The notes under the pieces are model-generated. The model ran no database searches, was not told the origin of the DNA, and was given only the letters and a program-made list of their open reading frames with translations. A DNA stretch of 64,000 nucleotides, taken from NCBI GenBank assembly GCA_028866995.1, contig JAGWHD010000001.1, positions 636,068-700,067 of the forward strand. Reading direction: 5' to 3'. The translations under genes were made by a program, and so were the position numbers. The stretch comes from Candidatus Micrarchaeota archaeon. GTDB lineage: Archaea; Micrarchaeota; Micrarchaeia; Micrarchaeales; CABMGC01. Positions 5,028 through 49,209 of the stretch are shown piece by piece (the stretch's first letter is position 1; every line of letters starts with the position of its first letter).

Positions 5028-5579
5028 ATGCTGAAGGAAGGCGCAAGAATACTCGTAATCGAGGACTCCCCGTTCAGGAGGACTGACAAATCTGTTTTTG
5101 CACTGGGCATGATAGTCAGAAATGACATCGTAGAGGGCGCCATGTCCTTCATGGTAAAGAAGGACGGCGACGACTCGGCAGACAAGATAATAAGGGCTGT
5201 CAAAAGGTCCAGGTTCAAGGACCAGATAAAGCTCTTAGTCATCAACGGCATCGCCATCGCCGGGCTCAACATCGTCGACATGGCCAAGATAAGGGAGATG
5301 CTGGGCATAGGCTCGATCGCGATAACCAGGAAGAGGCCAAGGCCCAGCCTGCTAAGAAGGGCGATAAGGACCATGACCAAGGACAAGGAGAAGCTCTCGC
5401 TATTCAACAGGCTCTCCAACGAGATAAGCATCTACAGGGCAAACGGCTACTACCTGCAAGCATTTGGCATCGAAAAGAAGGATGCTGTCAAGGTTGCCTC
5501 CTACGCAGTCAAATACCTGAGGCTTGCGCATCTCATAACAGGGGCCGTAGTGAGGGGAGAGAGCAAAGGCAGAATCTAA
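5028..5579 (+). CDS. UPF0215/DUF99 family protein (endonuclease V-like fold)
   Basis: 183 aa. ILVIEDSPF...DGDDSADKII...LLVINGIAIAGLNIVD pattern as remembered for archaeal DUF99. Confidence 0.6.
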   Translation: MLKEGARILVIEDSPFRRTDKSVFALGMIVRNDIVEGAMSFMVKKDGDDSADKIIRAVKRSRFKDQIKLLVINGIAIAGLNIVDMAKIREMLGIGSIAITRKRPRPSLLRRAIRTMTKDKEKLSLFNRLSNEISIYRANGYYLQAFGIEKKDAVKVASYAVKYLRLAHLITGAVVRGESKGRI

Positions 5580-5585
5580 GCATCT

Positions 5586-6449
5586 TCATGATGTCGGCGC
5601 GGAATAGCCCGATTGCCAGTTCGCATTCCATATGGCCTTACTGGCAGCGCCCTGGTTGTTGTTGCCTGAATAGTCGTTCGCGTTCCCGTTCAGCGGCCAC
5701 CATCCCGCGAGATGGTTCGGATCCACAGGAACGCCACCTATGCCTTCAAGGTATAATGCCTTGGCAGTGGCATTGTCTAGCGATGCGTTGTATATCTGGA
5801 CATTCGCCACGTATATCGTCTCGCCGTTCGCACCTTGGGCCAGGATAAGTTGCTGACTTCCTGAGAAGATAGTGAAGGAAACAGAATTGCTTTGAACTTG
5901 TACACCGTCAATGTACAGATAGGCGTTGCCGTTTGAGACGCAGGTTATTACAATGCTGTGCCATCTGCTGTCGTTGTAATTGCCGCTACTGGGCTTTATG
6001 TTTAGCACCGTGTGCTGGGTCCCTAGATTGTCGCTAGGTTCAAACTCATAGGCTCCATTGGAAGCTAGGATGAGATTGTAGTTCTGGTTCGCATTGCTTG
6101 TCCCTTTCTCTAGCATATACTGGCCGTTTACATCCGGACCAACCACCTTTATCCAGAGTGAAACGGTGAAGGCCGTCAGGGCCAGCGCAGATGAAGGCGA
6201 CGAGATCGATGCTGACGTACCGGGACCGAACTGCCCGACGTATTTGGGGATTAGGTTACTGCATTGCCCAGCGAGACTGGTCTGCGCAGCCGTCTTCATT
6301 ACCTGGCAAGATCCCGGAGTCGCGGTAGGTTTGAGGCTTCCAGCATTGAATATGCCAAGGGAATAGAGCGAGACCATGACGATCGCAATGGCAAGGATGG
6401 CCCAGCCATATGTCATCAGGTACTCCATCGCCGACTGCAACTTGCGCAT
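5586..6449 (-). CDS. Class III signal peptide (archaeal type IV pilin-like) protein with a LamG/concanavalin-type lectin domain, dispersed paralog
   Basis: N-terminus MRKLQSAMEYLMTYGWAILAIAIVMVSLYSLGIFN (QSxxEY plus hydrophobic helix). LamG-like FTVSLWIKV, RWHSIVITCVSNGNAYLYIDGVQ, VANVQIYNASLD. Conserved tail WWPLNGNANDYSGNNNQG. Confidence 0.75.
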   Translation of the reverse strand: MRKLQSAMEYLMTYGWAILAIAIVMVSLYSLGIFNAGSLKPTATPGSCQVMKTAAQTSLAGQCSNLIPKYVGQFGPGTSASISSPSSALALTAFTVSLWIKVVGPDVNGQYMLEKGTSNANQNYNLILASNGAYEFEPSDNLGTQHTVLNIKPSSGNYNDSRWHSIVITCVSNGNAYLYIDGVQVQSNSVSFTIFSGSQQLILAQGANGETIYVANVQIYNASLDNATAKALYLEGIGGVPVDPNHLAGWWPLNGNANDYSGNNNQGAASKAIWNANWQSGYSAPTS

Positions 6450-47745: not shown

Positions 47746-47844
47746 CCCGTTGTAGCTCAATGGCTAGAGCGGCCGCCTGTAGTTCGTAGCAGCACTTACG
47801 TGTTGGAAAGCGGCAGGTTGGGTGTTCGACTCACCCCAACGGGA
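47746..47844 (+). tRNA. tRNA-Tyr (anticodon GTA) with a 26-nt canonical intron (47783..47808)
   Basis: Hand fold: acceptor CCCGTTG/CAACGGG (C1-G72, as expected for archaeal tRNA-Tyr), D arm GCTC/GAGC, anticodon stem GCCGC/GCGGC enclosing CTGTAG+26+A, T arm GGGTG-TTCGACT-CACCC, discriminator A. Confidence 0.8.
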
Positions 47845-48339: not shown

Positions 48340-49080
48340 ATGAAACGATTAACCGCTTATCAAAGGATTATGATAAGGGAACTCGCCAAGACAGGCAGCC
48401 TGAATGAGATTTATACTCGTCTTTCCCTACCAAAATCAACCGTTCAGTATTGGTACAGCGATTACTCTAACTATGTTGCCCCGAAGAGTTTGCGATTTGA
48501 CCTAGGTTCTAACCTGTCAGTAGGTGAATTCATGGGTGCGTTTGCAGGCGATGGTAATTACACAAAAGACCGTGCATACAAGCACCAGATAAGGATTTAC
48601 ATAAACCGAGCAGACACTGGATACATAAACCATCTGAAAGGGCTTATGTTTTCTTTGTTCGGTAAAAATCCAAGCATCTTTATAGATACTAAAAAGAATG
48701 TGGCTGTGCTGCGTTTAGTCTCTGCGGATTTAATAGCGTTTATCCGGACATATCTCAGATGGGAGCATACAAAGACAAAAACAGTGCGATTGGCTCCTGG
48801 AGTAAAGAGAACCAAAGGTTTCATTACCGGTTTTCTAAAGGGGTTAATGGATACTGACGGATACATTAACAAGAAACAACATGTGGCGGTCTTCTCAACG
48901 ATATCCAGTAACCTGGCTAGGGATATAGGAACCTCATTAAGGGGACTTGGGATAAAGTATAATTGCTATAAGAACATTGATAAAAGACCAAATTATAATC
49001 CAATATTCAGGGTTGCTGTGCGACAAGATTTCCTAAAATTCATTAACATTATTAAGCCCTACCATGCAAATAACTTCTAG
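48340..49080 (+). CDS. Free-standing LAGLIDADG-type endonuclease with an N-terminal HTH
   Basis: Two dodecapeptide-like motifs: VGEFMGAFAGDGNY and ITGFLKGLMDTDGYI. N-terminal IMIRELAKTGSLNEIYTRLSLPKSTVQYW (HTH). AT-rich codon usage unlike its neighbours. Confidence 0.7.
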   Translation: MKRLTAYQRIMIRELAKTGSLNEIYTRLSLPKSTVQYWYSDYSNYVAPKSLRFDLGSNLSVGEFMGAFAGDGNYTKDRAYKHQIRIYINRADTGYINHLKGLMFSLFGKNPSIFIDTKKNVAVLRLVSADLIAFIRTYLRWEHTKTKTVRLAPGVKRTKGFITGFLKGLMDTDGYINKKQHVAVFSTISSNLARDIGTSLRGLGIKYNCYKNIDKRPNYNPIFRVAVRQDFLKFINIIKPYHANNF

Positions 49081-49082
49081 AT

Positions 49083-49209
49083 GCCTTGGTCGTCTAGTGG
49101 TTAGGATGCGAGCCTGTCAACACACTTGTTGTGTGGCAGGGCGCTTGCGAGTTTTTGTGAGTTTATTCACAAAGGCCAAGAAACCCGGGTCCGAATCCCG
49201 GCCAAGGCG
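49083..49209 (+). tRNA. tRNA-Asp (anticodon GTC) with two introns: ~22 nt at 37/38 and ~32 nt in the variable region
   Basis: Hand fold: acceptor GCCTTGG/CCAAGGC, D arm GTCT/GGAT, anticodon stem CGAGC/GCTTG enclosing CTGTCA+22+C. 37 nt lie between the anticodon stem and the T stem (4-5 expected), containing the hairpin TTTGTGA/TCACAAA. T arm CCGGG-TCCGAAT-CCCGG. Confidence 0.65.

Follow-up and report, generated by a model that had tools for sequence, protein, structure and literature searches.

How a tRNA gene that is interrupted twice may still give rise to a working molecule is the question raised by positions 49083–49209 (plus strand) of a 64-kb stretch of DNA from a Candidatus Micrarchaeota archaeon (the whole analysed stretch is called the window below). 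This element of 127 nucleotides (nt) has the stems of tRNA-Asp(GUC), one insertion in the anticodon loop and another in the variable loop, and it directly follows a gene resembling free-standing homing endonucleases. We consider it very probable that it is a functional tRNA-Asp(GUC) gene with a 127-nt body carrying two protein-spliced introns of the bulge–helix–bulge (BHB) type, which would be removed stepwise through conformer switching by an epsilon2-like endonuclease and an RtcB-type ligase.

The gene and its predicted product

The acceptor (GCCTTGG/CCAAGGC), anticodon (CGAGC/GCTTG) and T (CCGGG/CCCGG) stems and the discriminator G are found in 49083–49209, together with a D stem (GTCT/GGAT) that includes two G-U pairs. 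The original prediction had reported all four stems, an anticodon stem enclosing 29 nt (CTGTCA + 22 + C) and 37 nt between the anticodon and T stems, and the sequence reads exactly as described. In a 2-kb search, the Rfam tRNA model RF00005 matches all 127 nt end to end (model positions 1–71) and places both insertions at these sites; it scores 36.5 bits (E = 1.6e-5), above its gathering score of 29. Since the model is aligned at full length with exactly these two insertions, the match is not a chance one. The fold of the 127-nt precursor is also more stable than that of shuffled sequences (z = −4.1). The gene was reported neither by the whole-window Rfam scan at the gathering threshold nor by ARAGORN run with default settings on the unspliced window, and these two programs revealed no second tRNA-Asp gene within the 64 kb.

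The three exons and two introns were delimited from the RF00005 alignment, from ARAGORN applied to the spliced product and from orthologs. Exon 1 (49083–49119, plus strand) comprises tRNA nt 1–37, namely the 5′ acceptor strand, the D arm with G10-U25, the 5′ strand of the anticodon stem and CUGUCA. Exon 2 (49142–49149, plus strand), as defined by the BHB rule, comprises nt 38–45: C38, the 3′ strand of the anticodon stem (GCUUG), C44 and G45; its 3′ end moves to 49148 if splicing occurs at 44/45. Exon 3 (49183–49209, plus strand) comprises nt 46–73, with A46, C48, the T arm CCGGG-UCCGAAU-CCCGG containing C55, the 3′ acceptor strand and the discriminator G73.

Removal of both introns in silico yields 72 nt that ARAGORN by default identifies as tRNA-Asp(gtc). 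If intron 2 alone is removed, the resulting 94 nt are identified as tRNA-Asp with a 22-nt canonical intron; if intron 1 alone is removed, no tRNA is found in the remaining 105 nt. The spliced product is identical at 63–64 of the 72 positions to intronless Micrarchaeota tRNA-Asp genes (64 for loci L016 and L078 of our collection) and possesses the identity elements known for yeast tRNA-Asp (G73, G34-U35-C36, C38 and G10-U25). Judged from its sequence, the product is with high probability a 72-nt class I tRNA with a 4-nt variable loop, a predicted loop length equal to that of the intronless orthologs. The second insertion thus measures 33 nt and the mature tRNA 72 nt, where 32 and 73 nt had been proposed.

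Under lowered thresholds only (ARAGORN -i -ps), the program gave another solution, a tRNA-Val(CAC) interrupted once, by an intron of 50 nt at 34/35. This output is all that speaks for it. It places the intron at an odd position, needs a variable region of 9 nt and drops the perfectly conserved CUGUCA loop; the Rfam alignment favours Asp, and the orthologs that have at most one intron unambiguously encode tRNA-Asp(GUC). We therefore rejected this candidate, the probability of which is negligible.

Splice motifs, their conservation and probable stepwise splicing

Intron 1 (49120–49141, plus strand, 22 nt) lies at the canonical position 37/38, one nucleotide 3′ of the anticodon, and has the strict hBHBh′ motif (3-4-3), in which two 3-nt bulges flank a 4-bp helix. 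The helix h is the anticodon stem (5 bp), the central helix H is formed by CUGU (49114–49117) and GCAG (49136–49139), the bulges are CAA (49118–49120) and GGC (49140–49142), and h′ pairs CACAC (49121–49125) with GUGUG (49131–49135) over 5 bp. In both bulges the predicted cut follows the second nucleotide. Removal of the 22 nt from CUGUCA|22 nt|C leaves the 7-nt loop CUGUCAC present in intronless orthologs, and the junctions are fixed because no others restore this loop. Among 11 alleles of intron 1, 97.7% of the aligned positions are paired, and 4 of the 12 pairs are changed on both sides, including pairs in h and h′.

Intron 2 is placed by the same rule at 49150–49182 (plus strand, 33 nt), that is, at position 45/46, with 49149–49181 (44/45) as the alternative. 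Its central helix H joins CUUG (49144–49147, tRNA nt 40–43) to CAAG (49177–49180); the 5′ bulge is CGA (49148–49150), AAA (49181–49183) is unpaired on the 3′ side, and h′ (49151–49160/49167–49176) has 10 bp. The TTTGTGA/TCACAAA hairpin recognised in the original prediction is present as a part of this longer helix. The copy of the acceptor sequence GGCCAAG that had likewise been recognised (49174–49180) is indeed identical to 49200–49206, but it does not behave as an acceptor duplicate: its GGC closes the intron 2 helix, while CAAG is the BHB partner of nt 40–43. Both local and whole-precursor minimum free energy folds give this H–bulge–h′ arrangement, so that the BHB pairing between the copy and the exon which had been envisaged does form in these folds, in the relaxed version (HBh′), with a 4-bp exon–intron helix, a 3-nt bulge containing the 5′ splice site and the intron helix h′. 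It falls short of the strict motif, as the exon-side helix h is reduced to the single pair G39-C48. Pairing of GGCCAAG with the 5′ acceptor strand was also considered and rejected, because folds and orthologs show nt 40–43 as its partner.

The orthologs were collected through homologs of the neighbouring open reading frame (ORF), an exact-pattern scan for the 3′ exon in 185,579 genomes and a metagenome scan. The related loci come from metagenome-assembled genomes (MAGs) of Micrarchaeota, Micrarchaeia, Micrarchaeales. All four intron states occur among the Micrarchaeota-type tRNA-Asp(GUC) genes. Both introns are found in the window, L003, L005, L088 and L118; L131 has intron 2 only (23 nt); intron 1 only is found in L001, L006 and L008, with the variable loop AAAC, and in L044, L097 and L109, with UAAC; and 13 alleles with the loop YAAC have no intron. 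Orthologs free of intron 2 retain a 4-nt variable loop. The six alleles of intron 2 share the junction CUUG|YGA...CAAG|AAAC, and their interiors are unrelated hairpins of 23–33 nt. In their alignment 97.9% of the cells are paired and 4 of the 8 pairs are changed on both sides, while pairing drops to 19–48% in slid registers. In L131 the exon–intron central helix itself shows a compensatory change, from CUUG/CAAG to CCUG/CAGG. These data establish the gene, its two motifs with their conservation and covariation, and the fact that both introns are present in some related genes and absent from others. The original proposal of a tRNA-Asp(GUC) with a canonical and a variable-region intron is hence backed by in-silico splicing, BHB motifs and intron-free orthologs.

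These comparisons also bear on the possibility that the 37 nt form a class II-like long variable arm kept in the mature tRNA, the canonical intron alone being removed. A stable 10-bp hairpin does stand at about the site of the class II variable arm. However, the isotype is Asp (GUC) and not Leu or Ser (or Tyr, in bacteria), and to our knowledge Asp tRNAs are class I everywhere. The six intron 1-only alleles and the 13 intronless genes have a 4-nt loop and no arm, the interior of the insertion is not conserved while the BHB junction is, and ARAGORN recognises no tRNA in the product lacking intron 1 alone. This alternative, named in the original prediction as the case that would speak against it, is so improbable that we treat it as excluded, because of the orthologs without one or both insertions, the compensatory changes and the Asp isotype.

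The exact junction of intron 2 is a finer matter. The predicted exon joins are CUGUCA-C for intron 1 and, for intron 2, GCUUGCG-ACCCGGG (45/46) or GCUUGC-AACCCGGG (44/45). Cutting after the second of three bulge nucleotides, the only rule that restores the anticodon loop at intron 1, gives CG|A...AA|AC at intron 2, and this is why we assign intron 2 to 45/46. The mature variable loop is then CGAC (YGAC in all six alleles). The gene would have the same two introns if intron 2 were instead cut one nucleotide upstream (49149–49181, C|GAG...AAGA|AAC, also 33 nt), with the loop CAAC. In favour of this version, the loops of intronless Micrarchaeota genes are YAAC (CAAC or UAAC), and cutting at 44/45 restores YAAC exactly in all six intron 2 alleles. 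Nevertheless, NGAC variable loops are present in tRNA-Asp genes of other DPANN archaea (L135, L148 and L009), and 45/46 is a recurrent intron site, listed among the non-canonical archaeal positions and often occupied alongside the canonical one (PMC4090602). From the sequence we favour splicing at 45/46 without excessive confidence, and find 44/45 possible but rather unlikely.

For the processing itself we suppose the following scenario. The archaeal tRNA splicing endonuclease would cleave at the bulges of both introns and an RtcB-type ligase would seal the exons; for intron 2 an enzyme of broad specificity would be required, for example, one of the epsilon2 type of Ca. Micrarchaeum acidiphilum. 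The two complete motifs are mutually exclusive because nt 40–43 serve both the H helix of intron 2 and the anticodon stem, which is the h helix of intron 1. This competition implies that the precursor switches between conformers of similar stability: conformer A, with the anticodon stem and the strict BHB motif of intron 1 (−47.3 kcal/mol), and conformer B, with both H–bulge–h′ motifs and the anticodon stem open (−44.9 kcal/mol). Judging from these modelled folds, conformational switching probably takes place and the introns are removed one after the other.

Several points weigh against a functional gene with two spliced introns and should be kept in mind. As intron 2 lacks the exon-side helix h, its removal depends on an enzyme of relaxed specificity, and the architecture of the host endonuclease is taken from another member of the Micrarchaeota, our view of this genome being the 64-kb window. 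Cleavage, ligation, the order of removal and the exact junction of intron 2 are inferred, splicing being predicted from the sequence, and the YGAC loop obtained by the BHB rule differs from the YAAC of intronless Micrarchaeota orthologs, which fits splicing at 44/45. Manual trimming of the covariation alignments of both introns (A2 and A3) followed the proposed helices and hence biases these alignments in their favour; the signal is still clear in the aligned sequences despite this trimming. Finally, the T-loop (49190–49196) is UCCGAAU, with C55 at 49191 where U55, the pseudouridine-55 site, is near-universal.

This C55 could also be taken as a sign of a decaying or disrupted pseudogene, with the second insertion as debris (for example, of repair beside the endonuclease gene) and another tRNA-Asp copy serving the cell. 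A mobile-looking endonuclease gene does lie 2 nt away, and a further tRNA-Asp copy could exist, since the inspection covered 64 kb of the genome. Against decay, the gene retains every stem together with the identity elements, six lineages preserve the same insertion site and junction and show compensatory changes, and the window contains no other tRNA-Asp gene. C55 is found in five lineages whose genes are otherwise intact; as the window shares it with the tRNA-Asp genes of L001, L006, L008 and L086, it is, by sequence comparison, a lineage trait and not an error. A pseudogene is thus unlikely, and we assign this explanation a very low probability.

Three side observations concern the collected tRNA-Asp genes. 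The endonuclease-positive alleles without intron 2 (L001, 5744–5836; L006, 1161–1250; L008, 4996–5093) have the loop AAAC and not YAAC. AAAC is the remnant expected from an imprecise genomic deletion of intron 2 (YGA...CAAG removed, AAAC kept), which suggests intron loss at the DNA level. L086 (~5236–5343, plus strand) is a Micrarchaeota tRNA-Asp(GUC) gene with an insertion of ~35 nt in the D-arm region and no introns at 37/38 or 45/46; the insertion would be a third intron position for tRNA-Asp. Micrarchaeota-type tRNA-Asp genes were also found in L020 (DATLRT010000042.1) and L108 (DATJLP010000007.1), labelled as Acidiferrales bacterium and Acidoferrum sp., respectively; L108 and L005 have identical endonuclease and tRNA-Asp sequences. 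Both labelled contigs probably represent archaeal sequence mis-binned into bacterial MAGs.

The splicing features resemble those of ARMAN-2 pre-tRNAs (Fujishima et al. 2011, PMC3239211), which come from the same phylum and have BHB introns at canonical and non-canonical sites, two introns within one tRNA, and a mixture of strict hBHBh′ and relaxed motifs; default tRNA finders miss such genes there as well. Disruption affects 56% of the tRNA genes of Ca. Micrarchaeum acidiphilum, in some cases through two introns, and its epsilon2 endonuclease cleaves strict and relaxed BHB motifs in vitro (PMC3239211). The published examples differ in isotype and position (tRNA-Pro(GGG) at 53/54 and 59/60, tRNA-Cys at 59/60, whereas here tRNA-Asp is interrupted at 37/38 and 45/46) and in the relaxed motif, which is hBH there and HBh′, with the exon-side helix missing, here. 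Unlike in those examples, the two motifs of this tRNA-Asp share nt 40–43. In tRNA introns of Thermoproteales, Crenarchaeota and Nanoarchaeota (Marck & Grosjean 2003; Sugahara et al. 2008; reviewed in PMC4090602), 45/46 is likewise recurrent, a non-canonical intron often accompanies the canonical one, and introns are gained and lost between close relatives. Those introns belong to another phylum and to an endonuclease of the (alpha-beta)2 type in contrast to epsilon2. They differ as well in that the window gives no indication of one intron sequence having been copied into other tRNA genes: the interior of intron 2, a repeat of which would be a sign of intron transposition, was found there nowhere besides the intron itself.

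The adjacent LAGLIDADG gene and its possible link to the introns

The gene preceding tRNA-Asp (48340–49080, plus strand) encodes a LAGLIDADG homing-endonuclease-like protein of 246 amino acids, with 2 nt between its stop codon and the tRNA. The protein is 100% identical to an NCBI entry encoded on a 726,952-bp contig of a Candidatus Micrarchaeota archaeon MAG, which identified the organism as a member of the Micrarchaeota. The product has an N-terminal three-helix helix-turn-helix followed by two LAGLIDADG domains and matches Pfam LAGLIDADG_3 (PF14528) with E = 1.3e-13. Its GDG and DTDG motifs are invariant, as are the catalytic aspartates D71 and D173 in ten homologs. The AlphaFold2 model (predicted local distance difference test score 87.8) matches I-DmoI, intein endonucleases and I-SceI, and also the domesticated factor WhiA. 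Two motifs with catalytic acidic residues and a modelled two-domain alpha-beta-beta-alpha-beta-beta-alpha fold thus agree with assignment to the LAGLIDADG family. Neither an intron nor an intein frame surrounds 48340–49080, and the Rfam search found no group I intron or other RNA family there. Because the ORF stands between a HIT gene and the tRNA with no intron or intein around it, we consider it free-standing.

The gene bears the signs of a mobile element, namely foreign composition, presence or absence between relatives and a degenerate copy. Its GC content is 0.40 (0.42 at third codon positions) versus 0.54 (~0.70) for the neighbours and the rest of the window, and in every Micrarchaeota locus the endonuclease is 13–20 GC points below its flanks. 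L116 represents the empty site, where the HIT gene ends ~8 nt before an intronless tRNA-Asp. In L088 (~6209–6340, minus strand), directly upstream of the two-intron tRNA-Asp, all that remains of the endonuclease gene is its last ~45 codons, before which stand stop codons and an unrelated ORF for a membrane protein. Such a decayed copy fits the life cycle of homing endonucleases. The search of the viral contig collection yielded no endonuclease relatives.

The homologs form a family of DPANN loci (the window gene together with those drawn from L001–L009, L070 and L129–L161), and every homolog that could be placed in context abuts a tRNA gene with its own 3′ end. There are 29 such distinct loci. 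The gap is 0–41 nt, or the ORF runs into the tRNA; 13 of the 29 genes are co-oriented, with the 5′ end of the tRNA by the stop codon, and 16 are convergent, with the 3′ end of the tRNA there. The isotypes are Asp (15), Gly (8), Arg (2), Ala (1), tentatively Val (1), His (1) and one unassigned tRNA-like element (L149). It is likely, at a balanced estimate, that this family targets the ends of tRNA genes. Our literature search on tRNA-adjacent LAGLIDADG genes in DPANN or other archaea gave nothing relevant; it was incomplete and is no proof of novelty.

Are the introns connected with this gene? Each of the 8 Micrarchaeota alleles with an endonuclease (the remnant counted among them) has an interruption between nt 37 and 46, compared with 4 of the 17 endonuclease-negative ones, although the Fisher test (p = 4.6e-4) ignores phylogeny and is therefore overstated. 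The two insertion sites are 8 nt apart in the mature sequence and ~40 bp from the endonuclease gene, and they lie within the span of one LAGLIDADG recognition site. A strict rule that the endonuclease implies an intron was considered and fails, as the endonucleases of L135, L148, L009, L138 and L070 stand beside intronless tRNAs. Against a required link, both introns occur in L118, where the 117 nt of available upstream sequence contain no trace of the endonuclease. A functional tie between introns and endonuclease is accordingly possible, though rather doubtful. More speculatively, the gene may belong to an undescribed free-standing archaeal family that colonises the ends of DPANN tRNA genes; in Micrarchaeota it would target nt 37–46 of tRNA-Asp, and the introns would protect their carrier from cleavage and hitch-hike with the endonuclease (“collaborative homing”).

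Free-standing endonucleases of this kind have parallels. T4 SegB is a free-standing homing endonuclease residing in a phage tRNA cluster. F-CphI occurs beside an intron-containing psbA, and mobE/I-TevIII represent collaborative homing in phages (PMC6083498, PMC2790892). In common with these phage systems, a stand-alone gene of foreign composition is wedged here against a highly conserved gene, presence/absence and degenerate copies are seen among related genomes, and the adjacent gene in Micrarchaeota bears an intron in every endonuclease-positive allele. The differences are also considerable. The phage enzymes are of the GIY-YIG, HNH or EndoVII-like types and the introns there are of group I, whereas the endonuclease described here, known from sequence and model, is a LAGLIDADG protein of cellular archaeal genomes located by protein-spliced BHB introns; moreover, some members of the family adjoin intronless tRNAs, so that an intron is not required. 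Within archaea, I-DmoI, I-Tsp061I and I-PorI are LAGLIDADG endonucleases encoded inside BHB-spliced rRNA introns. The modelled two-domain monomeric fold agrees with theirs (Foldseek TM-score, a template-modelling measure, ~0.75 normalised to I-DmoI), as do the archaeal host and the tie to BHB-spliced stable-RNA genes. Unlike them, the ORF in the window is located outside the RNA gene, directly upstream of it, and its product has an extra N-terminal helix-turn-helix.

Some further features of these loci can be added. An AT-rich box, ATTATTAA, occurs at 49048–49055, ~31 nt upstream of the 5′ end of the tRNA and inside the last endonuclease codons. ATTATTAA could be the TATA box of the tRNA itself; in that case the tRNA promoter would overlap the conserved C-terminal endonuclease peptide. 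Further upstream lies a tRNA-Tyr(GUA) gene with a canonical intron of ~26 nt (47746–47844, plus strand; RF00005, 56.1 bits), the L129 ortholog of which is identified by ARAGORN as tRNA-Tyr(gta). The order AAA ATPase, tRNA-Tyr, HIT, endonuclease, tRNA-Asp is common to the window, L005 and L008. A 5S rRNA gene stands directly upstream of the endonuclease homolog in L131 (2148–2264) and L140 (2292–2408), the order in L131 being tRNA-Tyr, 5S rRNA, endonuclease, tRNA-Asp. In L143 (3238–3388, minus strand) and L145 (3202–3302, minus strand), tRNA-Gly(UCC) genes by endonuclease homologs have an insertion in the T arm (~53/54), and the L143 gene reaches 151 nt through an additional, long canonical intron.

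Significance for tRNA intron evolution in Micrarchaeota

Multi-intron tRNAs, introns at position 45/46 and a splicing endonuclease of broad specificity are already documented in Micrarchaeota and other archaea, and the tRNA is ordinary for its phylum. It adds one more well-supported doubly interrupted Micrarchaeota tRNA, the gene for which is missed by standard tRNA finders. Its usefulness lies in the four intron states found among close relatives, in the compensatory change within the exon–intron helix and in the splice motifs which compete for the same four nucleotides, a competition from which ordered splicing is predicted.

The association with the endonuclease is the less expected part and a more interesting lead than the tRNA itself. 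If true, collaborative homing would account at the DNA level for how archaeal tRNA introns are gained and spread, a process currently without explanation, and a family of homing endonucleases associated with tRNA genes would make this question experimentally testable.

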